Positions 20,473-62,253 of a stretch of DNA of 64,000 nucleotides are shown piece by piece. The notes under the pieces are model-generated. The model searched no databases, was not told the DNA's origin, and saw only the letters and a program-made list of their open reading frames with translations. A program made the translations under genes and the position numbers. This stretch comes from Candidatus Latescibacterota bacterium (GTDB lineage: Bacteria > Latescibacterota > UBA2968 > UBA8231). The stretch covers positions 320,001 through 384,000 of the forward strand of contig OZ220089.1 in the NCBI GenBank assembly GCA_964291625.2, written 5' to 3'. Each line of letters opens with the position of its first letter. Position 1 is the stretch's first letter.

Positions 20473-20473
20473 T

Positions 20474-24823: not shown

Positions 24824-24839
24824 CGGAGGCCGCCGCGCC

Positions 24840-28316: not shown

Positions 28317-28336
28317 GGGATGACGGCTCACGGTGG

Positions 28337-29266: not shown

Positions 29267-29272
29267 GTCGCC

Positions 29273-30667: not shown

Positions 30668-30703
30668 GTGGACAGCTCACGCGCACCCGCCTAGGGTTGG
30701 CGT

Positions 30704-31792
30704 ATGCAGCACGTCGTCATCTACCGCGAGGCCGGCCGCTACGCGGGCTGGCCCGCCAACTACGGCATCTGGTCGTGGGGCGACGAGATCGTCGTCGGCT
30801 TCACCCTCGGCTACCACGACATGGGCGGCGGCTTCCACGCGCGGGACCGCTCGCGGCCCTTCGTCGGCATGCAGGCGCGCAGCCTGGACGGCGGCGTCAC
30901 CTGGACAGCGGGGTCGACCCCGTGCCGGGCGCCCGGAGGCCGCGGCCTGTCCGCCGACGAGCACATGACCCCGGGCCTGCGCGTCGGCGAGGCCCTCGGC
31001 GCCGAGGGCAGGATTCCCGAGTCCCCCGGCGGCTTCGACTTCTCCCATCCCGACTTCGCCCTCATGTGCGCCAAGACGGGGCTGAACGCCGGCACCGTCT
31101 CGTTCTTCTACATCTCCACGGACCGGTGCGCCTCCTGGCGCGGACCGTTCGGGCTTCCCATGTACAGCCCGACCGGCGTCGAAGCACGTACCGACTACCT
31201 GGTCGACGGCCGGCGCACCTGCACCCTCTTCCTGACCGCCACCAAGGCCGACGGCCGGGAGGGACGCGTGCTCTGCGCCCGAACCGACGACGGCGGGCTC
31301 ACCTTTCCGCTGCGCGGTTGGATCGGACCCGAGCCCGAGGGCTTCCGCATCATGCCCGCGGGCCTGCGGCTCTCGCCCTCCCGCCTGCTTGCGGCCGTGC
31401 GCTGCCGCGGCCCCGAGGATGCCGGCCCGGCCCGCAACTGGATCGACCTCTACGCTTCCGAAGACGACGGAATCACCTGGGCCCTGATGGCCCGCCCCGT
31501 GGAGAGCACGGGCGTCGGGGGCAATCCCCCCACCCTCGACCGGCTGCACGACGGCCGTCTCTGCCTGGTCTACGGGTACCGGGACGCGCCCCATCAGATG
31601 CACGCCCGGTTGAGCGCGGACGAAGGGACCACGTGGGGTAACCCCATCGTGCTGCGCGACCACGCCGGGTGCCACGATATCGGCTACCCCCGCACCGTGC
31701 AGCGGCCCGACGGCACCGTGGTGACGGTCTACTACTTCTGCGACCGGCCCGACGGCGAGCGCTATCTCGCCGCGACTTTGTGGCGTCCCTAG
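30704..31792 (+). CDS. BNR/Asp-box beta-propeller, sialidase-like protein
   Basis: Asp boxes SLDGGVTW, TDDGGLTF, SEDDGITW, SADEGTTW; DIGYP near the C-terminus; no signal peptide. Confidence 0.8.
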   Translation: MQHVVIYREAGRYAGWPANYGIWSWGDEIVVGFTLGYHDMGGGFHARDRSRPFVGMQARSLDGGVTWTAGSTPCRAPGGRGLSADEHMTPGLRVGEALGAEGRIPESPGGFDFSHPDFALMCAKTGLNAGTVSFFYISTDRCASWRGPFGLPMYSPTGVEARTDYLVDGRRTCTLFLTATKADGREGRVLCARTDDGGLTFPLRGWIGPEPEGFRIMPAGLRLSPSRLLAAVRCRGPEDAGPARNWIDLYASEDDGITWALMARPVESTGVGGNPPTLDRLHDGRLCLVYGYRDAPHQMHARLSADEGTTWGNPIVLRDHAGCHDIGYPRTVQRPDGTVVTVYYFCDRPDGERYLAATLWRP

Positions 31793-33673
31793 AGAGAGAC
31801 GGCTTCCCGGGGGCCCGCGCCGGCGCACCGCCTGACGGGGGCGCCCCAGCAGGTCCTTCAGCTGCCCCTCGACCCTGGTCATGAAGGACGGGTCGAGCCC
31901 CGGCTCCGGAACGACGAAGGGCAGGCGTCCCAGACACTCCTCCAGGCGCCCCTGCTCCTCCGGCGTCAGCCCGCGGCCGGAGTGGCGTATGGCCTGGGCC
32001 CACCGCGCTGCCGCCCACATGTCTCCCACCGCCGTGAAGGGGGCCTGGCGCCGGCTGGCGGCGTAGTAGGCCTGGGCCCGGGACATGTCCCCGGCGGCGA
32101 AGAGCCGGTCCGCCACCTTCAGGACCAGCGGAACCTCCACCGGATGGCGCGTGCGCTCCAGGACCCCCTGGCGCTCCGCCCGGGTCAGCTGCCGCCACCG
32201 CTCTCCGGCCCGGCGCCGGAGGCGGATGGCGTTGTGGGCGTTGTAGCGGTCCAGGGGAGGGCTGGCCAGCAGCTCGGCCATGTTGTGGTCCACCTGCCAC
32301 CGCAGCACCGGAAGATCGCCCAGTTGCCGCCCGTAGTCGTCGTCCTCCCGGAGGCGTCCGTCGTCCACGGCGGGCGCGGCGGCAGCCGGGACCTCGGCCA
32401 TGGCGGCCAGGATGGTGCGCGCCATCAGGATCTGCCCGGCGATGGAAGGGTGTACGTGGTCGACCATCAGTTCCCGGCCCACTCCCTCCGGGGGCGCAGC
32501 CTCCGCGAAGGCCCTGGCCACGTCGGCCAGCACGGCGCCGCTCTCCGAGGCCGAGGCGCGAATGGCGCGGTTGTGGCTCTCGGGGGCGCGCCAGGGCATG
32601 GTGTCCAGCTCGCGCGCCCCGGCGAAGGCCGCGCGCGCTTCCCCGGGGCGATCGAGGCGCACCAGGGCCCGCCCCTTGAGGTACTGGAGCCAGGCGCTGC
32701 CGCCGGCCAGGGCTTCGGCGTCCTCGAGCCGGGCCATCGCCCCGGCAGCGGCCTCGGGGTCGACCCCATCCTGCAGCAGCGCCTCGGCGGCCATCGCCAG
32801 GTGCCGCTCCCAGGTGGAGAGCTGCTCGGCCGGAAGCCCCGGCCTCTCGGTGCCGGCCGGCGCGAAGCCGGCGTCGTTGGCGGCCAGGGTGCACAGGATC
32901 ACGGGAACCCCCGCGCGCCGGCAGGTCCCGGCCATGCGGGAGAGATTGGCCCGGAGGCCGGCGGGGGCCGACTGCCGGCGGGGATCTTCCAGCGACAGCG
33001 AGCCGCCCTCTTCGCCGAGGACCTGGATCAGGTCGGCGCCGGTGACCTCGGCGCCCAGGACGCGGCCGAGGAGAGAGTGCAGCATCCAGGGAATGTGCCC
33101 GTCCGCGAGGGCGTGGCGGAGGCGGTTGCCCAGGGAACTCCACCGGCTGCCCGCTCCGTAGATGCCGTAGTACTCGTTGTGCCCGGCGTAGGCCACGACC
33201 AGGTCGGGCTCCAGCCCCATGGCGTCCTCCAGCACCTCGGCCACCGCACCGCTGGCCAGGGCGGTGATGCCCAGGTTGAAGACCTGCACCTCCCGTCCGG
33301 GCCAGGCATCCTTCAGCATGGCCTCGAGGAAGGCGGCGGCCGAGAGGGAGGGAGGATGGGGGAACCCCTTCACCGTGGAGGCGCCCACGAAGGCGACTCG
33401 GAAAGGGGCGGGGGACGCGGGTTCGAGGAAGGGGTGGGCATCCATGCTGCCCCTCGCGACGAGCCGGCCCTGGTGGCGGCCGAGGAAGTAGCGCTTCGGG
33501 TACGACGGGTTGACGCTGCGCAACCGCTGCCTCCCGTGCTCGGACATGGTCAGCAGGAACGGCGGCGGTCCACCGGCCTTCACCAGCCGCAGACCCGCCT
33601 CTGCCGCCGCCAGGACGCCGAAGCCCAGGGCGAGGGCCGCCAGCCGAGGCCTCCAGGCCCGCCGCTCCGCCAT
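31789..33673 (-). CDS. Membrane-anchored SGNH/GDSL-like + TPR protein; true stop probably lost to a 1-nt indel
   Basis: N-terminal TM (AEAGLRL), VGASTVKG, QVFNLG, YAGHNEYYG, ARELDTMPWRA, DHVHPSIAG. As given, the frame reads through the antisense of the sialidase-like gene to 30677. Confidence 0.72.
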
Positions 33674-33680
33674 GGCAGGG

Positions 33681-34517
33681 TCAGGGACCGCTCCGGAGCA
33701 GGCGGGCCCCGATCGAGGCGGCACGGGCCCCGGGCGCCGCATGAAAGCGGTTGGCGGACCTCAGACGCTGGGCGCCGCTGTGGTGGAAGTACCCGCCCCG
33801 GTAGACCCGCTGCTCACCGGCGGACGGACCCGGCGGATCGGTTCCGGGTGCGCGGCCGTAGTAGTCGGCGGCGTACCAGTCCTGCACCCACTCGCACACA
33901 TTGCCGTGCATGTCGTGGAGCCCCCACCGATTGGGACGTCGGGTAGCCACGGCCTGGGCGTGGCGCCTTCCCGCGTCCCAGGTGTTGCCCGTGTGCCAGG
34001 CGTGGTCACCGAGGAGGGACGGGTCGTCGCCGAAGGACCAGCGGGTCGTGGTCCCGGCCCGGCAGGCGTACTCCCACTCCGCCTCGGTAGGGAGGCGGTA
34101 GAGATCCGCGGCGGCCAGGGTGTTCATCCGGTCCACGAACCCCTGCACCTGGTCCCAGGAGACGTTCACCGCCGGGTACTCCGGCCCCTCCTCCACGAAG
34201 TCCAGGCCCGCCCACGGCCGGCTGCCCATGACGGCCACCCACTGGGCCTGGGTGATCTCGGTGCGGCCCAGGTGGAAGGGCCGCGAGATCCTCACCTCCC
34301 GGAGGGGGCTTTCGTCCGCGTCCCTGCCCGGCTCGGTGACCGGCGAGCCCCTGAGAAAGGCACCGGAGTCAATCCGAACGAAGGCCATCTCCGCGCCGCC
34401 CGGCAGCTCCACCACCAGGGCAGGGTTGCCCCCGTCCGCCACATCCCCCTCCGGCGCACAGCCCAGGCCGAGGGCTCCCGAGGCCAGCATTGCCATCTGC
34501 CTTGCCACCGAGGGCAT
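33681..34517 (-). CDS. Formylglycine-generating-enzyme (SUMF1) fold lipoprotein
   Basis: LGC lipobox; TEITQAQW, PAVNVSW, YRLPTEAEWEYACRAG, PNRWGLHDMHGNVCEW, RVYRGG. Confidence 0.9.
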   Translation of the reverse strand: MPSVARQMAMLASGALGLGCAPEGDVADGGNPALVVELPGGAEMAFVRIDSGAFLRGSPVTEPGRDADESPLREVRISRPFHLGRTEITQAQWVAVMGSRPWAGLDFVEEGPEYPAVNVSWDQVQGFVDRMNTLAAADLYRLPTEAEWEYACRAGTTTRWSFGDDPSLLGDHAWHTGNTWDAGRRHAQAVATRRPNRWGLHDMHGNVCEWVQDWYAADYYGRAPGTDPPGPSAGEQRVYRGGYFHHSGAQRLRSANRFHAAPGARAASIGARLLRSGP

Positions 34518-34520
34518 GGC

Positions 34521-35771
34521 TCAGTACACGGATTCAGGGCGCGTGTCGATGAATCCGACGGTGCAGTCCACCGTCACCCGGGCGGACAGCCCCTGCATGA
34601 CCTGCGAGACCAGGTCCGGAGCCTGCCGGCCGCCCGGCTGCCCCGCCTCCGCCGTGTCGGCGGCCGCCCCGCCTGGCCTCATGGGGCCGCCGGAGGGCCG
34701 GAAGCGCCAGCCGCGGATCCGGGCGGCGAGGCAATCCCCCACCGCCTCGCTGACCACCGTGGAGGAGAGGGCTTCCGCCTCGGCGACCGTGCCGGGCGGC
34801 AGGATCACGAAGCGGACCGACACCTCTCCCTCCGAGGCCTTGCCGGCCATGGACTCCCTGGCAAAGCACTCGTTCAGCTCGTCCAGGCGGGACTTGATGT
34901 AGGCCTCCACGGCGGTGACGTCGCGCGTGATGTCCCCCGTCACGTTGCCGGTCACCCGGGTGCCGGGCAGCAACTCGGCGCGCGACACCTCCCTGGAGAC
35001 GGTCTGGCGCTGCTCCTCCCAGGCCGCCACCCCGATCTCCCGGTCGAAGTCGAACCCGATGTCGATCGTCTCCAGGGGCTTGCCGAAGGTGTTGAACTTG
35101 AGGACGAAGTCCCGCAGGTTGAGCCGGACCTGCTCGACCTCCGCGTCCAGTGGGTCGAAGACGATGAATCCCCCGTACTCCTCGCCCCGGAAGACCCGCT
35201 CCCCTACGCCGTAGTTGTTGGTCCGCACCAGACCCATGCGCATGTTGAAGCGGTAGTACTCGTTGCCGCTCGGTCCCCTCAGGCTCCGGTAGTAGGACTC
35301 GAAGTTCCTCGGCGACGAACCGGCCAGGACTCCGTAGGGCTCGAGGAGCTCTCCGGGACGGTCGGTGGTCAGGAACGAACGCAGCGGCTGCAGCTCGACC
35401 TTGGCGAAGGAGTAGTTGTGCACGGTGACCCGGAAGACGGTGAACCGGTTGCGCACGTACCCGACAGCCGGGTCGATGTAGTCACCGTAGGTGTACGGAT
35501 TCGTCGAGTACTCCCCCTGGCTGGACTCGGCCGGGAAGAGATCGTTCAGCCGCTGGTCGGTCATGTGCTCCACGTCGATCCTCAAACCCTCCAGGCCATA
35601 GGAGACGGTGCCCCCCTCGCCGACCGTGAAGCTCTCTCCCTGGTCCTCCAGGGCGGTGAGGGAGGAGGTGCGCTGGTAGATCGGCGGGTAGATGACGCTG
35701 CAACTGAGAAGGGCTGGCACGAGGAGGGCCAGAAGCGGCGCCGTCGGGAGGCTTCGGCAGTGGTTTCTCAT
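34521..35771 (-). CDS. Lipoprotein with C-terminal AgmX/PglI (TonB-C-like) domain
   Basis: Lipobox LLSC; C-terminal ELNECF...GEVSVRFVILPPGTV...VGDCLAARIRGWRF. Confidence 0.75.
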   Translation of the reverse strand: MRNHCRSLPTAPLLALLVPALLSCSVIYPPIYQRTSSLTALEDQGESFTVGEGGTVSYGLEGLRIDVEHMTDQRLNDLFPAESSQGEYSTNPYTYGDYIDPAVGYVRNRFTVFRVTVHNYSFAKVELQPLRSFLTTDRPGELLEPYGVLAGSSPRNFESYYRSLRGPSGNEYYRFNMRMGLVRTNNYGVGERVFRGEEYGGFIVFDPLDAEVEQVRLNLRDFVLKFNTFGKPLETIDIGFDFDREIGVAAWEEQRQTVSREVSRAELLPGTRVTGNVTGDITRDVTAVEAYIKSRLDELNECFARESMAGKASEGEVSVRFVILPPGTVAEAEALSSTVVSEAVGDCLAARIRGWRFRPSGGPMRPGGAAADTAEAGQPGGRQAPDLVSQVMQGLSARVTVDCTVGFIDTRPESVY

Positions 35772-35805
35772 GGTCGTTGAAGCACCCCTCTTCGAGGAGG
35801 CCGGG

Positions 35806-37035
35806 TCACTGGCGGCCGGCCTGGTTGTAGAAGTCGATCTGCTGCTGGGCGATGGAGCCCTTCTGGGTGAGGGCGAAGACCACGAGGTTGACGCCGAGCT
35901 TCAGCTGGGGCTCGTTCTCCGTCTCCCGCTCCCAGAGCGCTCCGTAGCCCTTGTCCGAGTAGACGGCCACCAGCCGGTCCCGGAGGTAGATGCCCTCCAG
36001 CCAGTAGGAGGGCCGTCGGGTAGCCGCGTACTGGTTGGACGCGTTGAGCACCTCCCCGCCCAGGGGGGGGCCGCCGTCGAAATCGAAGAAGACGTGGTAG
36101 ATGGGGTTGTCGTCCCGTAGCGGCACGAAGCGGGCATCCCGACCCAGGGCCTCCTTGAACATCGCCTTCATCGAGGCCTCGGCGGGGCCGTACTCCAGGC
36201 GCGGAGCGTCGTTGTCCGCGAGCACGAAACCGCCGTTGCGCAGGTACTTCCCGAGGTTGGCCGCCTCGTGCTTGGTCAGCTCGAAGGCCGACCGCGTGGT
36301 GATGTACACGAAGGGGGCCTTGAAGAGGGCCTGGGAGTCGAGGTACATCTGCTCGTCCACCTTGGCCTCGATCCGCGTCCAGTTGTTGATCCAGCGGGCC
36401 AGCTGAAGCAGCGCCCGGGGCCGCGAGGGCTCCAGGATGGTCCCCCAGGCGCGCGCCAGGTAGACGAAGCCGGTGACGTTGGTCTTGTCCGTGGGATCCT
36501 GGATCACCATTCCCTTGTACTTGCCGGTGTTGATGGCCGACAGGTCCAGGAACTCCGCCTGCATGTCGATCCGTCTCTCGGGCTCCTTCATGCTGGCGAT
36601 GCTGACCGCCTCGAACTGAGGCATCGCCACCACGGCGTCGCCGAGGCCGGTGCCCGCTGCCACGGTGAACTCCGCGCTTCCTCCGGTCCGGCTCCACATG
36701 CGCGTGCCCACCGGCATGCCCGCGCTCACCATGCGCCGTCCGCTGACCGTGGTGGTGGTGCGGTCCCCGCTCGAGCGGACAACGGGGGCGCCTTCGGGAA
36801 CGGCCTCCTTCCTGAAGGCGAACTCCCGGGTCAGCTGCGGCTCGGGCAGGAAGAAGGGGGTCTTCTCCTCGTCCCACTCGATGCGGGCCACCACCTCCTC
36901 CTCTTCCTCCGCCTGTGGCACCAGGTAGAGAAAGAGGGCCAGGGCGTGGAGTGCCGCCGAGGCCGCCAGACCGGCGTGAAAGAGGCGCCGGTTGCGCGAC
37001 AGGACCGTCAGGGAGCCGCTCTGCCGGGGGCTCAC
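35806..37035 (-). CDS. DUF4159-domain protein with TonB/TolA-like N-terminal TM anchor
   Basis: GTG start overlaps the TPR gene stop; TM AASAALHALALFLYL; DUF4159-like PFVYIT...NLGKYLRNGGFVLADN...NPIYHVFFDF...LEGIY...LKLGVNLVVFALT. Confidence 0.8.
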   Translation of the reverse strand: MSPRQSGSLTVLSRNRRLFHAGLAASAALHALALFLYLVPQAEEEEEVVARIEWDEEKTPFFLPEPQLTREFAFRKEAVPEGAPVVRSSGDRTTTTVSGRRMVSAGMPVGTRMWSRTGGSAEFTVAAGTGLGDAVVAMPQFEAVSIASMKEPERRIDMQAEFLDLSAINTGKYKGMVIQDPTDKTNVTGFVYLARAWGTILEPSRPRALLQLARWINNWTRIEAKVDEQMYLDSQALFKAPFVYITTRSAFELTKHEAANLGKYLRNGGFVLADNDAPRLEYGPAEASMKAMFKEALGRDARFVPLRDDNPIYHVFFDFDGGPPLGGEVLNASNQYAATRRPSYWLEGIYLRDRLVAVYSDKGYGALWERETENEPQLKLGVNLVVFALTQKGSIAQQQIDFYNQAGRQ

Positions 37036-40000: not shown

Positions 40001-40283
40001 CTTCCTCGGCGGACTTGAAGTGCGCATTCCCGGTCTGGTACAAGGCCACTTCCTGCAGCGGCGCCGAGATTTCGCCGACGGTCACCGCCACGTCCTTCAT
40101 CTGCAGGAAACGGCTCTGGCTCCGGATGATGCGCTGGTAGGCCTCGATCGCCTGGTCGTAGGCTCCCGAGGCGTAGAACCTCTGGGCGTCGGCGAAGGTC
40201 GCCTGCATCTCCGGAGCCGTGGGCACCGACCGGGTGACGGCGATCATCACCGTCAGGCCTACCAGGGTGATCAACGCGACCAT
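37032..40283 (-). CDS. Large membrane-anchored tetratricopeptide repeat protein (BamD/CpoB-like repeats)
   Basis: N-terminal hydrophobic helix; many TPRs with xxYP/FP turns (ERYPSS, ERFPGG, AYPGSP, DYPGHP, QYPDLD, RFPETG, RYPGGR, DFPESE). Confidence 0.88.
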   Translation of the reverse strand: MVALITLVGLTVMIAVTRSVPTAPEMQATFADAQRFYASGAYDQAIEAYQRIIRSQSRFLQMKDVAVTVGEISAPLQEVALYQTGNAHFKSAEEALASAARSRDPERRSRYQDRARSLFGEAADAFVRTEELSTVDALKALARSRAVACWYAIQDYERTIEGAALLIERYPSSAYVEQAMYDVGWAHYDREDYRNSITAFERLVERFPGGYRGSRALFQIGEAHFALENYREAVPFYQRLVDSQRIEEMSEREILQMKRQKIAGLVDETALDLAAKALIRVGECHEKTGQYAEAEEAFQLVASRFAEEQRLAEEAYLRQADMHYRRGDFAAVVAVYHQAIEATDDVVQKARMQLLLANRYFETEHYEEAVREYEVYRANYEAAAARAGLAVEGVALQIARAWFRVAERQPEEERLDYYRRAESELRATLAAYPGSPYDVELRFNLGLAIQLQDQPDKMGEALVFLGSVAEAPNAEGYRQSALFQIARTHHGLGDHAMAAKTYRTVIDELAEKPEQDVARFELGIVEREAGNQERALRELLAVGREAELFARSRLEAGQLLVRQGEHRQAVAVLQEGLEAKGRPEGQALHYLLASASMELGEQEGALTHFAAVIDQGDPDLGQRAAYSRGSLLFRMKRYSEALEELNREWTDPELSSAARRLLAAAYANLGDYGQAQAIYRQMADAAAGPLERAEHLLAEAEIANRQGRYADAFAACEEILGLDLKEGPLPEERQYHLREKAWFLQAESAVRTEDFARAFDRADAGLRAFPRGFFAADLLFLRGLAALQTDAAALAAASFGRMLADYPGHPNAGYARYYLGYAHFNKARFSRAIPFFAGVVDQYPDLDVAADALFRLAESRYNSGAYGEARQTYRQVIRRFPETGLAEEALYNIAWCLLNEAPAEPSAEHQAAVRQAMEEYLTRYPGGRHLPTARYTLAEMSYNAGDYDRAYELFQGLQADFPESEAARQAEGVLRDVREAVAFRDYSGAMEAFNRALAEDDHDLIRQAIGPLEAVWRQYSMTSSGLAAKMNVGVCYQQLGEWQKAVDAFGDVITQGERGNAQVTPRMMEFCERRRLTIERKHL

Positions 40284-40362
40284 GGTCCGTTACCTCTGGC
40301 TGCGGGCGGTTGCGGGACGCCGCCCTGGCGCGGTCCGTCCTGCCGCCATGGGAAGGAAGCTC

Positions 40363-45884: not shown

Positions 45885-45886
45885 GG

Positions 45887-48739: not shown

Positions 48740-48746
48740 GTTGCTC

Positions 48747-50813
48747 TCAGTAAACCACCCCTACGACGCCAGTGGCGGTTTCGGTCCCGGCATCGAGCTC
48801 CACCTGGACGCGGTAGATGTAGTTGCCCGGCGGCACGAGCCGGCCCTCGTCGTCCCTGCCGTCCCAGTATCCGGGGACGATGCCTCGGGCCCCGCTGACG
48901 AGGCGCAGGTAGACGCCGGCCGCCAGGGGGGCCGGCTTCAGATCGCGCACCAGAGTGCCCCGGAGGTCGAAGATGCGCACTCCCAGGTCGCGGGGCGTGT
49001 CGACCTTGCTGAGAATCAACTCGATGACGGTGTCGTCGTTGATGTCGTCGCCGTTGGGTGTGAAGACGGAGGGATTCGCGCGGACCCTCGACAGGGCATT
49101 CTCGGTGGAGGTCGTGGGGACCACCGCCCAGGAGAAGAGCTCGCCCGTGCTCTCGTCCATACCGACGCTCTCGGCCACGTTGACGGGGTTGTCCGAACCC
49201 GGGCTGAAGAGGAACATGCGGAACTCGTGGCTGTTCGCATGGGAGCGGGCCCGAAAGGGTATCTGCAGCTGGTCGATGTCGCGAAGCGGCTCGGTAAAGG
49301 CGAGTTCCAGCGCATCCTGGGTGGAGGTCCAGTCCGCCAGAATCCCCTGGAGCCGACCGTCGTCGACCAGCCGGGCCTCGCTGGGGACGGCGATGAGCAG
49401 CCGCTCGATCCCCGCGTCTTCGGGGGCAAAGACCAGGTGCAGGGTGCACACGAAGAGGGTGTCCGCGCCCATTGAGACCCGGTTGGGCGCAACCCTGGAA
49501 TGGGCGCCCGAAACGGCGAGTTCCTCGATGGTGTAGTCCAGCTCCAGGCTGTGCAGCGCCGGCGTGCGCCGCTGATCCCTGGACTCCAGGGAAACCCGGT
49601 ACTGGAGCCAGGCCCCCGGCTCCGAAGCGGGGAACCAGACGTCTCCACTCGACAAGGGACTGCTCCAACCGCGCCCGGGATCCTCGAAGTCCTCCGTCGA
49701 GTTCCCCGTCCGGAACTGGACGAAGAGATCGGTGCGCACGGGGACCTCCGCATCCCAGCGGACCCGGCCGAAGTTCTTGGCCTGGCCGGGCGCGCCAAGG
49801 GAGAGGGGCTCGGAGAGATAGGTGCCCTCATCGGTGTACCCGTCTCCGTAGACCTCCACCTCGGCGACCTTGGGCGGGCTCACCGAGTTGATGTCGACGA
49901 TCACGATACGCACATACCGGGTCCAGACCGGTGTGAAACGCACCTCCGTCCAGTCGAACTTCTCGATATCGTGTCTGACGCCCACTTCGGTCCAGCGGAC
50001 CTGGTCGTCGCTGACCTGTACCGAGTAGCCCCTGAGCGAATTCTCCTCCAACTGGCCAGGATTGCTCCCTCTTGTGACGACGCGGACGCTGCTGACGTTG
50101 CGCCTCACCTGCAGGTCGACGCTGGCCGAGTAGTTGAGGGCCGAGGTCGGGGGGTCCCAGGAGGTGTTCAGCTTCCCGTCCACGACCTCCTTGCGGTTGC
50201 TCGGTTTGTCCAGGGCCAGATTCCGGCCGCGAATCTGACTCAGAACCAGGCTTCCCTGCCGGGTGCCCACATCGATCCCCGCCTCGAACCCGGAGACGAC
50301 CTCGATCTCCGGGTCGAGCAGGTCCTGGATCCGGGCGCGCTCGACCGATCCCTGCTGTACGGTCTGCCACGCGGCATCATCCTCGGGATCTGCCGTCGTC
50401 CACTCCAGGCCCTGCTGCTCCGCGGCGGTCCAGTACCATCCCTGCACCACCTGGTTCGTGGTCGTCTCGATGCGGTACTCGTCGGTGACCACCGCGGCGA
50501 TCAGGCCGTTGCCGCCGCCGCCGCCGCGGTTGACGACCTTCACGGCGATGTCATTCCCCGACTTGCCGTCCTGGACCTCGATGGCATAGGCCTGCATCCG
50601 GGTACCGAGGGAATCCCCGCCGAGGAGCACGCCGTTGAAGTAGACCTCGTAGCTGTCCACGGCGGCTACGTGGAGCTGGCCCTCGAGAGGGGCCTCGGAA
50701 ACGAAGTTGGTACGGAAGTAGGAGGTGCTGCGCCACGAACTCTGCTCCCACGTCTGCGCGGTCGCCGCAGCCGTGCAGCAGAGCACGATCAGGGAGGTGA
50801 AGCGGATAGACAT
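48747..50813 (-). CDS. Secreted protein: galactose-binding-like + discoidin (F5/8C) domains + FlgD-Ig/T9SS type-B-like CTD
   Basis: Signal MSIRFTSLIVLCCTAAATAQ; NLALDKP...VVDGKLNTSW...YSVQVSDD...RYVRIVI...AEVEVYG; CTD PSVFTPNGDDIND...IFDLRG...WDGRDDEGRLVPPGNYIY. Confidence 0.82.
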   Translation of the reverse strand: MSIRFTSLIVLCCTAAATAQTWEQSSWRSTSYFRTNFVSEAPLEGQLHVAAVDSYEVYFNGVLLGGDSLGTRMQAYAIEVQDGKSGNDIAVKVVNRGGGGGNGLIAAVVTDEYRIETTTNQVVQGWYWTAAEQQGLEWTTADPEDDAAWQTVQQGSVERARIQDLLDPEIEVVSGFEAGIDVGTRQGSLVLSQIRGRNLALDKPSNRKEVVDGKLNTSWDPPTSALNYSASVDLQVRRNVSSVRVVTRGSNPGQLEENSLRGYSVQVSDDQVRWTEVGVRHDIEKFDWTEVRFTPVWTRYVRIVIVDINSVSPPKVAEVEVYGDGYTDEGTYLSEPLSLGAPGQAKNFGRVRWDAEVPVRTDLFVQFRTGNSTEDFEDPGRGWSSPLSSGDVWFPASEPGAWLQYRVSLESRDQRRTPALHSLELDYTIEELAVSGAHSRVAPNRVSMGADTLFVCTLHLVFAPEDAGIERLLIAVPSEARLVDDGRLQGILADWTSTQDALELAFTEPLRDIDQLQIPFRARSHANSHEFRMFLFSPGSDNPVNVAESVGMDESTGELFSWAVVPTTSTENALSRVRANPSVFTPNGDDINDDTVIELILSKVDTPRDLGVRIFDLRGTLVRDLKPAPLAAGVYLRLVSGARGIVPGYWDGRDDEGRLVPPGNYIYRVQVELDAGTETATGVVGVVY

Positions 50814-50840
50814 CAGGAGGTTTCCCCTGCCGATAGAAAC

Positions 50841-50874
50841 AAATGGGTGGCCGGTTTGCACCGGCCACCCATTT
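50841..50874 (-). terminator. Perfect 15-bp stem-loop between the first and second genes of the long operon
   Basis: AAATGGGTGGCCGGT-ttgc-ACCGGCCACCCATTT, followed on the minus strand by GTTTCT. Confidence 0.7.
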
Positions 50875-50916
50875 CCCGAGTCAGGCTGCTCTCAACAAGA
50901 GACGCCCGCAGGCCGC

Positions 50917-52758
50917 TTACTTGAGCAGAGTTACGCGCTTGCTCTCGGCAAAGCTCCCGGCGACCATCCGGAATACATAGACCCCGCTGCCGACCTTGGC
51001 GCCGCGAGAGTCCGTGCCGTCCCAGGTGACGTGGTAGGAACCGGGATCCAGCATCTGGTCGACCAGTCTGGCCACCTCCTGGCCGGCCACGTTGTGCACG
51101 GTCAGGGTCACCGACTCGTGCAGTTCGGGAACGGCGATGCGGACCGTGGTCTCGGGGTTGAAGGGGTTCGGGAAGGCGTCACCCAGTGCGAAGGCTCCGG
51201 GCTTTGCCCCCTCGACTTCGGAGATCCCGCTTTCCAACTCACCAACCCGTGCCCGGGCGATGTCCATTGGGAAGTGCGCCAGATAAGGCCCGGCCCCCAC
51301 GCCGATGTACAGCCCGTCGGCCTCGTTGTCGTTGTCCATCAACATGGCGATGCCGCCGAGTGCGCCCGGGGGCATGTGGATTCCCACGTTGAGCTTGAAC
51401 AGACCGAACCCGTCGGGTCCCAGGACCGTGGCCCATTCAGGCGCTTCCCAGCCGCCGACGAGGCTGATTCCCCAGCGGGTGGCCAATATGCTGATCGGAA
51501 TGTTCGAAGGGATCCCCAGGGCCTCCCTCTCCTCACTGGTGTAGTAGTCGAGGTAGAAGTCGCCGTTCTGGTTCTTCCAGACCAGATTGAGGTCGTGATC
51601 GGTCTTCGTCGGGCCCGCTCCGGGGCGCCCGAGATAACTGGTCCCGTAGTAGCCCGTGTCGTCGACATCGAACCCGGCCACGGACTTGAAGTTTCTGGGG
51701 GCGCCTTCGTCGTTGTAGACCTGCGGGAAGTAGTCCAGGAAGGACAGGACGTCCACCAGCTCTCCGGTGGCGCGGTCGAACCTCTGCACCGCGGGACCTG
51801 GCGAACCGTAGGGCTCCACGTGGTCGGCGACGGTGGCGTAGAGCAGGCCGTCGTCGGCAACCCAGGGATGGTGTCGGGCGTTGGTCACCATGGTGGTGAT
51901 GCCGCGAACCTCCATTGCGATGTACCCGCCGTCGGCGTTCTCCCAGCTCTCGTCCAGCAACGCGGTGCCCGCCTCGCGATCGATGATCGCTCGGTACAGG
52001 CCGCCCGGCGGGTTCTGGAAGCGGATGACGTACGCCACTCCGTCCTCGGCCGGATCCATCTGCAGGTAGCCGACGTCCTTCCAGTCGTTCCCGCTCTCGG
52101 CCGGAACCGCGTTGACCCACGGGATGGCGAAGGTCTCGAAGGCTTCGGGATTGGCGAGCAGGTCGGTGCCCATTTCGCTCACCCTGATGTTCCACACGCC
52201 ATCGATCTGCTGGGGGAACCAGATCTCCGGGGGGCTCTTCGTGTCGTCGACCACCGAGTTCTGCCAGGGGGCCATGGTCCCGCCCGCGTAGGTGGGCTTG
52301 GAGTCGACGTCGATGGCGAACAGGTAGGTCCTGTAGGCGCCGGAAGCCACCGCCGCTCCCGTGTAATCCGTGCCGTCCCAGGTGATGGTGTTCGAGCCCG
52401 CGTCGAACCGGTCTCCGGCACTGATGTAGACCAGGGTATCCAAGCCGGCGGCGCGGATCAGGCTCTGCTCGATGCCTCCCACCCCGAAAGGCTCTCCGCC
52501 GTACTGGGGATCGGCATCCAGGGTGTACACGGCGAGCCAGACCATGGCCGAGGGAACGCCTTCGATGGTGAAAGGGATCTCGAGCGGGGAACCGTCAAAA
52601 CTGTGGTCCACGTCCTCGGTCGAGAGTTTCAGCACCGTCGGCGCACCACCCTTCCAGTGGGCGTCGAAGCTCTGCCAGTCCGGGTTCGACTGGCCGAAAT
52701 CGTTTGCCGCGACCGTCCCGACCAGCCCGGAACACAGCAGAAGGATCGCCTTTTTCAT
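50917..52758 (-). CDS. Secreted protein with N-terminal FlgD-Ig-like domain, probable beta-propeller core and T9SS type-A-like/FlgD CTD
   Basis: AAGGAG RBS; signal MKKAILLLCSGLVGTVAA; internal ITWDGTDYTGAAVASGAY; C-terminal FPNPFNPETT...WDGTDSRGAKVGSGVYVFRM...KRVTLLK. Confidence 0.85.
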   Translation of the reverse strand: MKKAILLLCSGLVGTVAANDFGQSNPDWQSFDAHWKGGAPTVLKLSTEDVDHSFDGSPLEIPFTIEGVPSAMVWLAVYTLDADPQYGGEPFGVGGIEQSLIRAAGLDTLVYISAGDRFDAGSNTITWDGTDYTGAAVASGAYRTYLFAIDVDSKPTYAGGTMAPWQNSVVDDTKSPPEIWFPQQIDGVWNIRVSEMGTDLLANPEAFETFAIPWVNAVPAESGNDWKDVGYLQMDPAEDGVAYVIRFQNPPGGLYRAIIDREAGTALLDESWENADGGYIAMEVRGITTMVTNARHHPWVADDGLLYATVADHVEPYGSPGPAVQRFDRATGELVDVLSFLDYFPQVYNDEGAPRNFKSVAGFDVDDTGYYGTSYLGRPGAGPTKTDHDLNLVWKNQNGDFYLDYYTSEEREALGIPSNIPISILATRWGISLVGGWEAPEWATVLGPDGFGLFKLNVGIHMPPGALGGIAMLMDNDNEADGLYIGVGAGPYLAHFPMDIARARVGELESGISEVEGAKPGAFALGDAFPNPFNPETTVRIAVPELHESVTLTVHNVAGQEVARLVDQMLDPGSYHVTWDGTDSRGAKVGSGVYVFRMVAGSFAESKRVTLLK

Positions 52759-52924
52759 GAGTTGCTCCTTTTCTCCGCCCTCCATGACGAGCCCGGTTCA
52801 ATCCGGCTTTGAGGGGTGAGATTTGGTTCGTGACCTGCTATCTCCATGCCGGGTTTCGGCAGGGCCACTAAAGAGGCCACTATTGATTCTGCCTGCGGCT
52901 CAATCCTTTGGCTCCTTCTCGTTC

Positions 52925-52960
52925 AATAACACCATTACCACCCTTTTTCGTGTATGTCAA
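52925..52960 (-). promoter_or_regulatory. Candidate sigma70 promoter of the long minus-strand operon
   Basis: Perfect TTGACA at 52960-52955, a 17-nt spacer, then TG-G-TAATGG(T), in the most AT-rich intergenic region. The -10 is imperfect. Confidence 0.55.
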
Positions 52961-52961
52961 G

Positions 52962-52999
52962 AGAAAAAACAGGCCCGCGTCCCACCTGGGGCGCGGGCC
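52962..52999 (-). terminator. Rho-independent terminator of the 53022-53525 gene
   Basis: Minus strand GGCCCGCGCCCC-AGGT-GGGACGCGGGCC followed by TGTTTTTTCT. Confidence 0.75.
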
Positions 53000-53021
53000 A
53001 CGGTTGACGCTTATGTTTCGC

Positions 53022-53525
53022 TTATGATCCGCTTTCCGGATCAGAATACCCCTCGGGCCCTGATCCCTCTGCCTCGCCCGCCTTGATCCTCACGGGGTCA
53101 GACCCGACCGAGATGAACCTGGTCCGCGGGTTGAGGGTGAGTTTGTCGTAGTTCCCGAAGGGCCGCCAGCGCTTGGCCCCCGGGGTGGTCATGGTCTGGG
53201 GCTCGGCGTCCGGCGCCTCGACACCGATCATCCGCAGAGCCTCCTCCTCATCGAAAGGATCCATCCCTTCGAATCTGTAGCTGACATAGCTCGCCTCCCC
53301 CGCCTTAATTACCACGAAGACCCGTACACCCGTACCGAGCACATCCTGCCACAGCAGGTGCCCGAACCTCTTTCCCGAGTCCTGGACGTTCTGCATGGGT
53401 TCTCCCCAGCGCTCGATCAGTTGTGCCTCGCTCGTCCCGAGCACCTCGTGCACATCCAGCGGCGGCCGCTCCCGGGAGCAGGACACGCCGAGAACCAGGA
53501 CTGTGACGGCCAGTGCGATTCGCAT
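53022..53525 (-). CDS. Hypothetical lipoprotein
   Basis: MRIALAVTVLVLGVSC lipobox; VLGTSEAQLIERWGEP; terminator downstream. Confidence 0.72.
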   Translation of the reverse strand: MRIALAVTVLVLGVSCSRERPPLDVHEVLGTSEAQLIERWGEPMQNVQDSGKRFGHLLWQDVLGTGVRVFVVIKAGEASYVSYRFEGMDPFDEEEALRMIGVEAPDAEPQTMTTPGAKRWRPFGNYDKLTLNPRTRFISVGSDPVRIKAGEAEGSGPEGYSDPESGS

Positions 53526-53631
53526 CCGGATCCGATCCCTGTCTTCAACTCGCTCTGAAGCCCGGCACCTCCCGGCATCGGGCCGAGAGCCGCAAAATAA
53601 GCCGGACTCGACGGATTGTCGATCGAGTCAG

Positions 53632-56436
53632 ATGCGGTCCCGGATCTGGATGCTGGTCCTGGCGCTGACGAGCGGCGCCGGTGCGACGGCAGAGGCGGGC
53701 GAGCCCCGTCTGGGGCTCGCCCAGGACGTCTCGGGCCGGTCCTTCCTCTACCAATCGGATCCTGCCTACCAGAACTACGGGTTCGAGGACTACACACTTC
53801 CGGAGTTCACGAGCTTCGCACGGCGCAACTACTACGGCCCCCTGGGCAACTTCCTGATCGAGGGCTACGACGTGTACGAGTGGCGGGAGACGCGGGCGTC
53901 CTCGACCACGGCCTGGCACAAGTCGTTGCGCACCATCCCCCGCTGGGGGCGCTTCGAGCGCAACCTGGTAGCCCGGGAGTCTCACTCCCGGTGGGCGGCG
54001 AGCCTGATCTACGGGGAGGAGATCCGCACCCTCTTCACGCCGTTGACGCTGGCCCTGCCGGGATACGACGGCATCCGCCTGGACACCCAGGTGGGCAACA
54101 CCCGGGTGGCCGTCATCGGACAGCGCTACACCGGCCACTTCGCCGCCGGCCGCTACGGCGATGGTCCGGTCTGGACCGACTGGGACTTCACCGAGCACAG
54201 GCGGAGTTCGCTCATGCTCCTGGGGGCTCACGGCGACGTCGAGCTGGGAGCGCTGACCCTGGGAGCCACGGGGGTGAACTTCCACATCTTCGACGCCGAG
54301 CAGGAGAGCTTCGATCTGCGCGGCGGGCTGCAGGCCGAGCAGGTGCTGCCGGTGGCCTACCTGGTGCGGTTCTCCGATGATTCGCCGGAGGACCTGCAGG
54401 CCGGCGCCCTGGTATCGGAGGTCCGTCTGAAGATCAACGGCGAGGACCGGCCGGACCTGCGGCCCTTCCTGGCCCGGATCGACGGCCGGAATCCAACGGC
54501 GGTGGGCACCACCAACCGGCTCACGGGTCAGTTCCGGCGGGCGGTCTACCTCGACCGGGACACGCGCTTCGCGGACCTGCTCTACCTGCGCGATCACCTG
54601 CGGGGCGAAGACGTGTCGGACAAGGTCAACCTGGAGGAGCTGCTGCGCTGGGTGCAGGTCCTGCCCGACGTTCCGGGCCATCGCGCCGACGGCCACGACC
54701 AGATCATCGCGATGTTCGACGTGAGCCAGGAGCCCTTCGTCCGCCAGGTGCAGGTGGAGGCGCTGGTGGGCAACGACTACCGGGTCGAGGTGCTGCCGCT
54801 GTTCGTCTCGGCGCCGGCGGTGGAGGAGTACGAGTTCCACTACCGTGTCGGCGGCAACACCCTGGTTCCCGGGCAGGGCTACTTCGTGGAAAGGGAGACG
54901 CCGGGGGTGACCGCCGCCCGCCGGTCCCGGGGCAACGTGCAGGACATGTCGAACCTGGAGTGGGTGCGCCTGGACCTGGGGGAGTGGACCGGCCGCGCCC
55001 TGTGGGGGCTCAACGGGTCCTGGGAGTGGGGCGACGCCGAGGTGCGCTGGGAGTACGCCCGCAGCGTGGAGTTTCGGGAGTTCCCCGACGGCCGGCCGGG
55101 GTATCGCGAGGACCGGGAGGTGAGGGGCATTCGCCGCTGGAACGGGGCGCGCAGCAGCACGGACGCGGGCGCGTACTACGTGAACGGGCGCTGGCGCCGG
55201 GGCCGGGTGGAGGCAGGGGGGGAGCTGTTCTCGATCGCCGAGGAGTACGACAGCGGCTTCGTGCAGGACAACGACGACGACGACCGCTATCCCGACATCG
55301 GCCCCGGACATCGCCCCATGAGCGCTGACACGGGCACGCCCTTCGACCCGGACGGGGTGTTCCCGGGCAACGACCGGGACAACGACCGGATTCCGGACAC
55401 CAACCGCAACGGCAACCGGGTACCCGACTACCTGGAGGCGTTCCTGCTGTACGACGTGGAGCCGGAAGAGTATGCCTATGGCCGGGACGCCAACAACAAC
55501 GGGATCGCCGACCACCGCGAGGACGACCTGGATTCGGACTACCCCTACGAGGTGGACCAGCGCGGCCACCACGTCTTCGGGACGCTGCATCTGCCGGGCG
55601 GCTTCGGTCTCACGTCGGGCCGTCTGCAGGCGGAGGGGATCGTCAGCGGCGGCCGCAACGAGAGCACCTACGGCGTGGTCACCTTCCGCCGCCACAACCC
55701 CCGGTGGGGCTCGGTCTGGGCCGAGACCCGCCTCCGGCGGCTCCATGACGACATCGTCGACAACTACGTCGTCTTCGACGAGACATGGGGCCGCTATCCC
55801 AACCGGGAGCGGACTTACGCCCCCACCAGGCTCCTGGATCTGCTCGAGTACCGGGACAGCCTGGACCGGCAGCACTACGTCGAGGCCGATCTGACCGCCT
55901 CCCCCGGTCTCCGTCTCAGCGGCAACCTGCGCCATGCGGTCAACGAGCAGCAGGAGGCGACCCTGGCCGACGGCAGCGACCAGGCCGCCGACACCATCAC
56001 CCGCCTGACGATGGTGGCCCGGGCCGAGTACGTGCTGGAGCTGTCGGACCGCTGGCGGGTGATCGCCCAGGCCAAAGGGTTGCGGCTGCGCCGGACCCGG
56101 CAGAGCCTGGCCGTGGACCTGGCAGACGAGTGGACCTTCGTACCGATCCTCAAGGCCTCCTGTCACATCACACCGCGCACCCACCTGTGGCTCGGCACCC
56201 AGGGACTGCCGGGACTGCCCTTGCGAAAGGAGGACCTGGCCGACGGCCGCGACAGCTACGAGGAGGTGGTGCGGGTGGTGCAGCTGACGAACTGGGCGCC
56301 CTACTTCGGGTACAACATCGCCACCAACCTGGGCGTCAAGTGGAGCCGGCGCCAGTACGGAGATCCCGCGCGGGACAGGGACAACGTCGACATCACCTCC
56401 GCCTTCATGCGCGTCATCCTGGGCTTCGACGAGTAG
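53632..56436 (+). CDS. Uncharacterised ~930-aa secreted/outer-membrane protein, paralog B (near-identical inverted copy of 40363-43173)
   Basis: Start MRSRIWMLVLALTSGAGATAEA; collinear with paralog A over its whole length and ends ...RVILGFDE. Confidence 0.85.
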   Translation: MRSRIWMLVLALTSGAGATAEAGEPRLGLAQDVSGRSFLYQSDPAYQNYGFEDYTLPEFTSFARRNYYGPLGNFLIEGYDVYEWRETRASSTTAWHKSLRTIPRWGRFERNLVARESHSRWAASLIYGEEIRTLFTPLTLALPGYDGIRLDTQVGNTRVAVIGQRYTGHFAAGRYGDGPVWTDWDFTEHRRSSLMLLGAHGDVELGALTLGATGVNFHIFDAEQESFDLRGGLQAEQVLPVAYLVRFSDDSPEDLQAGALVSEVRLKINGEDRPDLRPFLARIDGRNPTAVGTTNRLTGQFRRAVYLDRDTRFADLLYLRDHLRGEDVSDKVNLEELLRWVQVLPDVPGHRADGHDQIIAMFDVSQEPFVRQVQVEALVGNDYRVEVLPLFVSAPAVEEYEFHYRVGGNTLVPGQGYFVERETPGVTAARRSRGNVQDMSNLEWVRLDLGEWTGRALWGLNGSWEWGDAEVRWEYARSVEFREFPDGRPGYREDREVRGIRRWNGARSSTDAGAYYVNGRWRRGRVEAGGELFSIAEEYDSGFVQDNDDDDRYPDIGPGHRPMSADTGTPFDPDGVFPGNDRDNDRIPDTNRNGNRVPDYLEAFLLYDVEPEEYAYGRDANNNGIADHREDDLDSDYPYEVDQRGHHVFGTLHLPGGFGLTSGRLQAEGIVSGGRNESTYGVVTFRRHNPRWGSVWAETRLRRLHDDIVDNYVVFDETWGRYPNRERTYAPTRLLDLLEYRDSLDRQHYVEADLTASPGLRLSGNLRHAVNEQQEATLADGSDQAADTITRLTMVARAEYVLELSDRWRVIAQAKGLRLRRTRQSLAVDLADEWTFVPILKASCHITPRTHLWLGTQGLPGLPLRKEDLADGRDSYEEVVRVVQLTNWAPYFGYNIATNLGVKWSRRQYGDPARDRDNVDITSAFMRVILGFDE

Positions 56437-56438
56437 GC

Positions 56439-58448: not shown

Positions 58449-58506
58449 GGGATGGCTCTCCTTGTGCGACGGCGACGGGGATGCGGCCCCGGCCAGGCTG
58501 GCACCC

Positions 58507-62191: not shown

Positions 62192-62253
62192 GCGGTCCCT
62201 TGGCGCTCGGCAGGTCCTCCCGGCGCCTGATCGCCGTGGAGGACGAGGTCCCG

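Follow-up and report, generated by a model that had tools for sequence, protein, structure and literature searches.

Introduction

To our knowledge, outer membrane uptake of large nutrients is known almost exclusively from TonB-dependent transporters (TBDTs), and polysaccharide utilisation loci (PULs) are defined by SusC/SusD. Latescibacterota is an uncultured phylum common in sediments and sponges. Here we analyse an envelope gene cassette in a 64,000-nt stretch of DNA, referred to as the window, from Candidatus Latescibacterota bacterium (assembly GCA_964291625.2, contig OZ220089.1, positions 320,001–384,000, forward strand). The array (g1–g10) encodes two secreted proteins with C-terminal domains (CTDs) like those known from type IX secretion (the T9SS) (g1 and g2, or proteins C1 and C2), three paralogues of ~900 aa (g3–g5), a tetratricopeptide repeat (TPR) protein (g6), a membrane-anchored DUF4159 protein (g7), a lipoprotein called L8 (g8), and two further proteins (g9 and g10). 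A fourth ~900-aa paralogue, barD, and an ExbB/ExbD stator set are encoded nearby. As set out below, the cassette appears to be a conserved envelope unit built around a family of giant predicted outer membrane barrels, and we tentatively favour a role in glycan uptake.

The individual parts are of known classes, and no description of the barrel family, the cassette, or the proposed combination was found in the literature searched. A 2015 analysis of Latescibacteria genomes assumed non-specific porins (PMC4454575), and a single-cell genome of that study is the source of two loci in our survey (L024 and L043). A term search of a paper on PAUC34f (PMC7081726) found no outer-membrane or TonB terms. 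We found no literature linking Latescibacteria with DUF4159 or type IX secretion, subscription journals and bioRxiv supplements being outside the search.

A predicted family of giant outer membrane barrels

Domain calls were made by Pfam and NCBIfam scans of 16 window proteins. No family in either collection matched g3–g5, which are related to each other at 31% identity for g3/g4 (E 1e-93) and 28% for g3/g5 (E 2e-66). A word-indexed search returned 71 relatives, all unnamed or 'hypothetical', and the few with a named source were Latescibacterota or Gemmatimonadota metagenome-assembled genomes (MAGs). When 1.84 billion representatives were searched by profile, 1123 clusters matched at E ≤ 1e-3 and 362 at E ≤ 1e-30, and the same family profile gave one chance match against PDB sequences (E 0.72).

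The AlphaFold2 model of g5, built on a 56-sequence alignment, had a mean pLDDT of 80.1 and a pTM of 0.77 and showed long strands throughout, with ~26 barrel strands as counted from the DSSP string. It includes a well-modelled insertion of ~220 residues (225–445) and an irregular acidic region (539–645), which is the most conserved segment of the family and carries five D-x-[DN]-x-[DN] motifs. No internal repeat was detected by hhalign between parts of the barrel. A home-made count of amphipathic strands was tried as a barrel test and dropped, as it failed to separate the family from real TBDTs (22 vs 15 segments).

When the g5 model was compared with PDB structures by Foldseek, 129 matches were obtained at E ≤ 1e-3, topped by Deinococcus SlpA (7e-10, TM 0.18) and MtrB (2e-9). 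In an unbiased structure search of 48,161 chains, 58 reached Z ≥ 8, and all 50 listed were membrane beta-barrels, with a best Z of 13.0; MtrB scored 10.8 over 438 aligned residues. In the structure comparisons, TBDT chains appeared only as generic barrel matches (Z 8–12.5). The Plug domain (PF07715) was found neither in g3, g4, g5, and barD at E ≤ 0.01 nor in 47 family members at E ≤ 1, and TonB_dep_Rec (PF00593) matched neither the window barrels nor the 47 members. Alignment of the family profile by hhalign with 19 TBDTs of the source's own genome gave a probability of 2.4%. This genome encodes ~24 ordinary TBDTs (24 Plug matches), none of them at barrel loci. On the strength of the predicted fold, the ~900-aa proteins are a family of giant outer membrane barrels lacking a Pfam or NCBIfam model; the barrel fold and the sequence-model tests ruled out soluble enzymes, TBDTs, and known T9SS parts. 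An outcome that would have spoken against an undescribed system, a fold of one of these known kinds, was not what the g5 model gave. Of the SurA-like peptidyl-prolyl isomerase paralogues that tblastn detected in the own genome, all seven are no more than 10 kb from a barrel gene, and five are within 900 bp of one.

The resemblance to SlpA raises the alternative that the barrels are abundant general diffusion channels, that transport through them is not specific to any substrate, and that the outer membrane is tied to the cell wall via the TPR protein, L8, and a Tol-like set. SlpA was the top match by Foldseek and also in a VIA comparison (Z 16.4 over 336 residues vs 14.5 for the next unrelated porin), TolQ/TolR were the best-scoring models for the stator proteins, and the CpoB model was matched by g6. 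The SlpA_C domain (PF21620) gave weak local matches in 19 of 47 family members (best E 2e-7), but these covered only profile positions ~216–323 of 656 and reached at most 23 bits, where bit scores are given, against a cut-off of 35. In the unbiased search, SlpA (Z 9.9) stood within the pack. Moreover, Pfam detected no SLH domain in the window barrels, the g5 model showed no coiled coil or long N-terminal helices beyond the signal peptide, and a purely structural role would leave 25–50 diverged copies in catabolic clusters unexplained. We regard this alternative as very unlikely.

Conservation of the cassette and orthology of its barrels

The ten proteins were searched by tblastn against the own genome, which comprises 5.9 Mb in two contigs (contig C1 and contig C2). 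The full order g1 to g8 was found at four places with 29–65% identity: contig C1 8–27 kb, the window, contig C1 4.436–4.458 Mb, and contig C2 42–66 kb. In addition, positions 1–4183 of contig C2 hold a cassette end, in which the TPR gene is truncated at base 2 and the genes for DUF4159 and L8 come next. Barrels matching it were found at neither contig end, which may point to a break in the assembly at this repeat.

More than 622 relatives turned up in a scan that took one genome per species, and 70 loci were kept, nearly all in Latescibacterota-labelled MAGs. Cassette order was present in 19 of the 70, from at least 17 other assemblies, with 25–65% identity. The run C1-C2-B-B-B (B, barrel) occurred in seven loci and TPR-DUF4159-L8 in nine, and the TPR gene directly followed the barrels in 15 of the 19 cassette-type loci. 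By consensus, the genes run C1, C2, B, B, B, TPR, (small membrane protein), DUF4159, L8, (lipoprotein), ExbB, ExbD, ExbD, as exemplified by L045, L063, and the own-genome copy L083. A minimal cassette, DUF4159-C2-B-TPR-L8, was seen in L058–L060. The exbB-exbD-exbD genes lie inside or beside the cassette in L045, L063, L049, L014, L083, L086, L072, and L074, and most ExbB/ExbD sets detected by tblastn in the own genome are in or near cassettes. Judged from this gene order, the cassette is a conserved, distinct multi-gene envelope unit, as the first-pass annotation of the window had supposed, and its link to ExbBD is stronger than was claimed there.

That annotation also counted an FGE-fold lipoprotein (g9) and an SGNH/TPR protein (g10) among the parts of the machine. 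Among the related cassettes, only one (L019) has an FGE gene and none has GDSL; therefore, g9 and g10 are local additions rather than core genes, and we rejected them as machine parts. A lipoprotein of other cassettes, u310, was likewise rejected as a component of the window cassette: its sole window match falls in an unrelated LarA-like gene near 2.8 kb.

The barrels were then compared in a FastTree phylogeny of 52 selected sequences from 24 sources. The barrels of cassette positions 1, 2, and 3 separated into three clades, and SH-like support was 100 for every one of them. All nine sequences from position 1 and all nine from position 2 fell in clades of 10 and 11, which include g3 and g4, respectively. 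The nine from position 3 fell together in a clade of 20 that also holds barD, which nests with g5, and the relatives' solitary barrels, that is, those outside cassettes. These position-specific clades indicate that the barrel triplet is old and that each position is a distinct orthologue, a pattern that would fit three distinct barrel subunits in a hetero-oligomer.

One variant cassette, at contig C1 283205–306201 (L074, L075), contains, in this order, genes for DUF4159, ExbD, ExbB, TPR, a PorV/PorQ-family barrel, a lipoprotein with the L8 N-domain, two barrels, and two g2-type CTD proteins. Its PorV/PorQ-family gene, between the TPR and L8 genes, scored 84 bits against a cut-off of 90, and a 92% identical copy lies at contig C2:448627.

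CTD proteins and the type IX translocon

The protein g1 matched FlgD_ig (66 bits, cut-off 27) and, at 21.9 bits against a cut-off of 23, the type-A tail model TIGR04183. Its CTD aligns to that of PorU, and its orthologues stand first in the cassette in relatives. For g2, matches were obtained to F5_F8_type_C (54–56 bits), CHU_C (27.3 bits vs 27), and TIGR04131 (20.8 vs 35), together with weak PDB matches to lectins and to the carbohydrate-binding module (CBM) of a NagJ-family enzyme. Its C-terminal half has ~20 paralogues in the own genome, many of them directly upstream of barrel genes. N-terminal hydrophobic signals were present in both proteins.

A survey of the own genome for canonical T9SS genes detected SprA (607 bits, summed) and two PorU (572 and 537 bits), all outside the window. 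One of the porU genes adjoins a PorV-like gene that, at 114 bits, does not reach its cut-off, and the CTD end of the PorU model had ~48 more matches. GldK-like matches were far below the cut-off; the GldL and GldM models had no match in the genome, but their controls matched nothing either. Of the 151 genomes sampled in the phylum, 146 have SprA, among them members of the two families in which no barrels occur (barrels in 0/30 and 0/19), so SprA does not discriminate. Since g1 and g2 each have a CTD and a signal peptide and the genome has a translocon, secretion by the T9SS is predicted for both. The presence of SprA, PorU, and the PorV-like gene means that the CTD proteins need no new secretion route, and g1 and g2 are probably cargo of the ordinary T9SS translocon.

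This arrangement admits a different function. The barrels could be oversized functional analogues of PorP/SprF shuttles, receiving the neighbouring T9SS CTD proteins and anchoring them at the surface, with ExbBD, DUF4159, TPR, and L8 moving or loading adhesins in the manner of Agl-Glt in Myxococcus or of GldLM with its GldKN track in Flavobacterium. CTD genes lie directly upstream of barrels in most own-genome loci, the g2-type CTDs match the type-B family CHU_C, a PorV/PorQ-family gene stands in the variant cassette, and g8 carries an AgmX/PglI tail above cut-off. Two studies report that genes of type-B cargo occur linked to porP/sprF-like ones and that the cargo binds these barrels (PMC9143113, PMC12618676). 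The window copy also encodes an FGE-fold lipoprotein like GldK/GldJ, and FGE-fold tracks drive PorP/SprF-type barrels in Bacteroidota (PMC12635249).

Against such a surface-display or gliding machine, none of the SprA, PorP/SprF, GldJ/K/L/M/N, or Glt models reached its cut-off on any of the 16 window proteins; g9 scored 66 bits with GldK (cut-off 350) and 36 with GldJ (cut-off 458), and an FGE gene is no conserved feature of the cassette. In the window, a sugar ABC importer is encoded co-linearly with the stator. Dozens of solitary barrels per genome lie among catabolic enzymes, many without a detected CTD neighbour, and substrate-specific uptake therefore fits better than motility. Because the CTD-barrel gene pattern is the same as that of type-B T9SS cargo, the display or motility machine stays a serious rival, though we consider it rather unlikely. 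Uptake and display can coincide, namely if the same barrels carry the CTD proteins and let substrate through.

The TPR, DUF4159, and L8 proteins

The g6 protein matched Pfam TPR families, TIGR02795 (CpoB/YbgF-type, 190 bits in five stretches), and TIGR03302 (BamD-type, 122 bits). In g7, a single transmembrane helix and a charged linker precede a C-terminal DUF4159 (PF13709, 97.1 bits vs a cut-off of 25.9). In an alignment, 25 homologues had in common a short cytoplasmic motif, one transmembrane helix, a basic linker, and DUF4159. The helix of g7 contains an SxxxH motif (SAALH), as had been noted earlier, but a regular expression and the alignment placed the motif in the helix of only part of the 25 homologues, and an SxxxH TonB-like anchor was accordingly dropped as a defining feature. 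No match to g7 was found among PDB sequences. No function is attached to the DUF4159 family, and the only literature found to name it was the Pfam database paper.

The g8 protein has a lipobox and matched the AgmX/PglI tail model NF033768 (53.4 bits vs a cut-off of 40), with TIGR01352 at 20 vs 27.1. Two domains make up its AlphaFold2 model (pLDDT 80.8). The N-terminal one, an Ig-like sandwich, resembles the Bacillus lipoproteins YcdA and YjhA (Z 7.6–8.1), and the second aligned to TonB-CTD/TolAIII chains with Z 7.0–7.5 and an rmsd of 2.5–3.2 Å over 82–89 residues, covering the whole chains. These Z values are middling, yet they agree with the sequence models, and the modelled C-terminal domain of g8 is of the TonB/TolA-CTD fold. 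The sandwich is kept in all L8 copies, while the TonB-type tail is absent from several. The GltG model NF033760 reached 36.9 bits on the window proteins against a cut-off of 650, and GltA/B/H/K gave no matches there.

A TPR gene adjoining barrels also suggests an apparatus for envelope building and for export of a polysaccharide or glycoconjugate, in which a TPR scaffold and a porin would work as in AlgK/AlgE, PelB, BcsC, and PgaA and the CTD proteins would be modifying or binding factors. AlgE, with Z 14.3, was among the better structural matches of the g5 model, the 48,161-chain search listed a polysaccharide secretin as well as a chain of PelBC (Z 9.9), one family member had a weak Pfam match to the PelB barrel (E 0.034), and PMT_2-TPR genes, which are glycosyltransferase-like, recur near barrels. 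However, the AlgE and PelB structural matches were no better than those of ordinary porins, none of the cassettes showed a gene for a polymer synthase, Wza/Wzc, or a flippase, and the neighbours are mostly degradative enzymes. We know of no exopolysaccharide exporter that uses ExbBD or TonB-like parts. We likewise rate export as very unlikely.

Distribution and context of solitary barrels

The barrel family was present in 94 of 151 genomes sampled evenly across the phylum. It was found in all 63 genomes of the window's own family-rank group and in none of those from two other families of the same class (0/30 and 0/19). The own genome has ~25 barrel genes at 12 loci, and a single-contig relative, G060, has 65 matches corresponding to ~50 barrel genes at 37 loci. 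Several G060 barrel genes are split into two or three adjacent frames, and two matches contain an internal TAG, which suggests that some copies are decayed or carry sequencing errors.

Solitary barrels of the own genome typically stand behind one to three g2-type genes (CHU_C or FlgD_ig tail, often F5/8 type C). Downstream of the barrels come a SurA-like gene and, in some cases, one for a lipoprotein of 250 aa matching the L8 N-domain; FG-GAP/ASPIC and PMT_2-TPR genes are also found nearby. Many family members have no detected adjoining CTD gene. In relatives, 16 solitary-barrel loci were surveyed with up to four genes per side (126 proteins). A sulfatase, GH38, GH78, GH113, GH32C, BNR_2, or polysaccharide deacetylase was encoded at 11 of the 16 and a GDSL esterase at two more, and many had genes for UxuA, enolase-superfamily (MR_MLE), xylose-isomerase-like, PhyH, or short-chain dehydrogenase proteins. 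Of the 27 sulfatase genes in G060, 7 have a barrel gene no further than 10 kb away (3.25 expected, P 0.04) and 11 have one no further than 20 kb away (5.6 expected, P 0.016), a modest enrichment relative to uniform random placement, the one control used.

A possible energised route for glycan uptake

Taken together, predicted folds and gene neighbourhoods lead us to favour, tentatively, the reading that the cassette is an outer membrane system for glycan capture and uptake, energised by the proton motive force (PMF) and Sus-like in its working but made of non-homologous parts. The first-pass annotation had left secretion or surface display and glycan uptake side by side. As the barrels are a large family in carbohydrate-degrading loci, uptake is favoured over secretion, and the T9SS genes of the genome remove the call for a new export route for CTD proteins.

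In such a system, the CTD proteins would be exported by the genome's own SprA/PorV/PorU and would sit on the barrels to bind substrate. A single hetero-oligomeric channel complex would be formed by the barrel trio, with the TPR scaffold and L8 beneath them in the periplasm. Acting via the DUF4159 protein, the TPR scaffold, and L8, the ExbBD stator could supply the energy to open or clear the channel, and the ABC importer would carry the product over the inner membrane. Solitary barrels may be substrate-specific channels in catabolic loci.

A more far-reaching form of this proposal would make the cassette a second, independent energised importer of nutrients across the outer membrane. In this form, a hetero-trimer of plug-less ~26-strand barrels would bear T9SS-delivered lectin lids or binders and be gated through the TPR scaffold and the TonB-CTD lipoprotein by an ExbB-ExbD2 stator, with DUF4159 as transducer instead of TonB. 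The solitary barrels would plug into a few energising cores as a PUL system without SusC/SusD homology. We offer this as a speculative extension that is rather unlikely to hold.

Several points weigh against an uptake role. All functional links come from gene neighbourhood and predicted folds, and strand number, the side of the large loops, and plugging of the lumen in g5 are estimates from the DSSP string alone. The barrels have no plug domain and may be passive pores rather than gated or energised ones, and no TonB box was detectable in them, with no motif model applied. L8 is a lipoprotein rather than an inner-membrane TonB, and the SxxxH motif of g7 is not conserved. A TPR protein with a porin is the layout of exopolysaccharide exporters too. 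In the own genome, solitary barrels lie mainly beside CTD, SurA-like, FG-GAP/ASPIC, and PMT_2-TPR genes, not classical carbohydrate-active enzymes; the context survey in relatives had no control, and the sulfatase enrichment comes from one genome. A PorV/PorQ-family gene occurs within one cassette variant, and a CTD gene directly upstream of an outer membrane barrel is also the hallmark of T9SS type-B cargo and PorP/SprF anchors (PMC9143113, PMC12618676). Finally, contigs from two metatranscriptome libraries count in favour of the reading, as they cover all genes of the stretch at near identity (0–3 differences; 30/30 bins for X13 and 20/30 for X22), but they may derive from DNA carry-over, and operon structure is beyond their reach.

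Whatever its function, the conserved cassette ties the giant-barrel family to an ExbBD stator, DUF4159, and T9SS-type surface proteins, and cassette and family alike are clear targets for structural work. If the uptake reading is true, the family would provide a marker for substrate-utilisation loci in Latescibacterota, DUF4159 would have its first role, and PMF-driven import across the outer membrane would be buildable without a TBDT.

Gene array, neighbouring genes, and habitat

Genes were called from an open reading frame (ORF) listing and codon-position GC, with one gene picked per stretch, since the 70% G+C of the window produces abundant long spurious ORFs. The array consists of ten consecutive minus-strand genes running from 52785 down to ~31800 (Table 1). 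They abut or overlap, or are separated by gaps of 2–79 nt with likely starts behind signal peptides.

Table 1. Positions in the window of the array genes and of neighbouring genes
Feature	Position	Strand	Description
g1 (protein C1)	50917..52785	-	622 aa, secreted, signal peptide; C-terminal FlgD_ig / T9SS type-A-like CTD
g2 (protein C2)	48747..50861	-	704 aa, secreted, lectin-like; F5/8 type C (CBM32-like) and C-terminal CHU_C / type-B-like CTD
g3	45887..48739	-	Predicted barrel, cassette position 1; ORF 950 aa; signal peptide from ~residue 72
g4	43170..46097	-	Predicted barrel, cassette position 2; ORF 975 aa; likely start is Met near residue 72
g5	40363..43173	-	Predicted barrel, cassette position 3; 936 aa
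g6	37032..40283	-	TPR protein, 1083 aa; N-terminal hydrophobic anchor or signal
g7	35806..37239	-	Membrane-anchored DUF4159; likely start near 37035, abutting g6 stop
g8 (L8)	34521..35771	-	416-aa lipoprotein; Ig-like beta-sandwich ~35-250, TonB/TolA-type C-terminal domain ~280-410 (modelled)
g9	33681..34517	-	FGE-sulfatase-fold lipoprotein; accessory
g10	30677..33742 (open frame)	-	GDSL/SGNH and weak TPR; accessory
BNR/sialidase-like gene	30704..31792	+	Convergent, interrupts minus-strand array; Pfam BNR_2 40 bits, GC3 frame
Sugar-type ABC importer	27462..30667	-	Pfam SBP_bac_8/1 and BPD_transp_1; directly upstream of exbB
ABC solute-binding protein	29273-30667	-	
ABC permeases	28337-29266 and 27462-28340	-	
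exbB	26751-27443	-	Pfam MotA_ExbB (PF01618) 98.5 bits
exbD, first	26297-26737	-	Pfam ExbD (PF02472) 76.4 bits
exbD, second	25903-26295	-	Identified by tblastn only
barD, fourth barrel gene	53395..56436	+	Divergent from g1; separate solitary-barrel locus

Codon-position GC and the ORF listing bore out the ten co-directional, abutting or overlapping genes of the first-pass annotation, and Pfam and NCBIfam reproduced all of its domain assignments. The three ~900-aa paralogues (28–31% identity), the nearby fourth, and the nearby exbB, exbD, exbD were likewise recovered, and, as stated earlier, the array holds no recognisable orthologue of SprA, GldL/M/N, SusC, or GltA/B, no cut-off being reached and no Plug domain found. 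The range given, 31789..56436, is corrected in two respects: position 31789 is not a gene end, as the g10 frame remains open beyond it, and barD, on the plus strand, lies outside the co-directional array.

The g9 protein matched FGE-sulfatase in Pfam at 147 bits and has a lipobox. For g10, GDSL_2 scored 32.3 bits against a cut-off of 32.9, with a weak TPR match. Its alignment to paralogues stops near residue 634–640, and the frame then runs without a stop to 30677, adding ~370 open codons antisense to the BNR gene. All five genus relatives (85–97% DNA identity) likewise lack a stop there. The scarcity of stops in this extension can be explained by its codon position 1 coinciding with BNR position 3, which is 92% G+C.

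The genes for the solute-binding protein, the two permeases, ExbB, and the two ExbD are contiguous on one strand, and this stator set is set apart from L8 by g9, g10, the convergent BNR gene, and the ABC importer. On the other side of the array, barD is an inverted copy with 86% identity to g5. Downstream of it are DUF4838-DUF6785-DUF4838 genes, and the same block occupies the same position in the relatives' loci L001–L003. Within 53395–63963, the DUF6785/DUF6784 protein is a multi-pass membrane protein with nine hydrophobic windows. DUF6785 genes recur beside barrels in many loci and may encode an inner-membrane partner of solitary barrels.

Further along the window, just downstream of the exbD genes (18403–25000, minus strand), a 694-aa Omp85/POTRA protein is encoded beside a 1508-aa TamB-domain protein, and the two look like a TamA/TamB-type outer membrane assembly pair. 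Two MgtE-related genes (12626–13690 and 16088–17434), one with MgtE_N and CBS only and the other a full MgtE with its membrane domain, flank a gene for a large PTPS_related/DUF6541 membrane protein. At 2773–5202 is an 809-aa LarA-like (lactate racemase) protein with a C-terminal FlgT_C-like stretch.

Near-identical sequence to positions 33000–52900 was present in many public runs labelled as sponge metagenomes, from 13 studies. Many sponge runs held 26–47% of the sampled words of this region, and one run held 98%. The organism seems to be of a sponge-associated lineage.

Comparison with known systems

Deinococcus SlpA has 30 strands, and MtrB and LptD have 26. The barrels described here appear to be of the same size class and may share their fold, to judge by the SlpA and MtrB structure matches, and, as in LptD-LptE and MtrB-MtrA, a partner protein (here L8) is encoded alongside the barrel. 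In contrast to these systems, the similarity to SlpA_C is weak and local, and no SLH domain, cytochrome partner, or Lpt genes accompany the barrels. The acidic Ca-type loop region and the 220-aa insert seem particular to this barrel family.

With Tol-Pal and TonB, the cassette has in common the ExbB/TolQ and ExbD/TolR proteins, a CpoB/YbgF-type TPR in g6, the predicted TonB/TolA fold in L8, and, in g7, a single-pass inner-membrane protein with a charged linker. It differs in having no TolA, TolB, Pal, or classical TonB architecture, in a membrane-anchored partner that ends in DUF4159, and in two ExbD genes per set. The Myxococcus Agl-Glt and Nfs systems likewise encode an ExbBD/TolQR-like stator, AgmX/PglI-tail proteins, large TPR proteins, and outer membrane barrels together. 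Unlike there, the GltG model reached 37 bits here against 650, GltA/B/H/K found no matches, the TonB-C domain is on a lipoprotein, the giant barrels are expanded, and the context is catabolic.

The type-B T9SS cargo and PorP/SprF pairs of Porphyromonas and Flavobacterium resemble the present loci in having a CTD gene directly upstream of a barrel gene and a CHU_C-type CTD; SprA and PorU are in the genome above cut-off, with a PorV-like gene below it. In contrast, the barrels here are about three times larger, match no PorP/SprF model, are accompanied by TPR, DUF4159, and ExbBD genes, and in many cases have no detected CTD neighbour.

Finally, as in SusC/SusD PULs, a large outer membrane barrel is paired with a gene for a predicted surface-exposed glycan-binding partner, dozens of diverged copies per genome stand among sulfatases and glycoside hydrolases, and there is a tie to the proton-driven ExbB/ExbD energiser. 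The barrels here differ from SusC in lacking a Plug or TonB_dep_Rec domain, and their partners are T9SS-CTD proteins rather than SusD lipoproteins. Moreover, the core cassette has three paralogous barrels, to which it adds a dedicated stator, a TPR protein, a membrane protein with DUF4159, and a lipoprotein with a predicted TonB-CTD.

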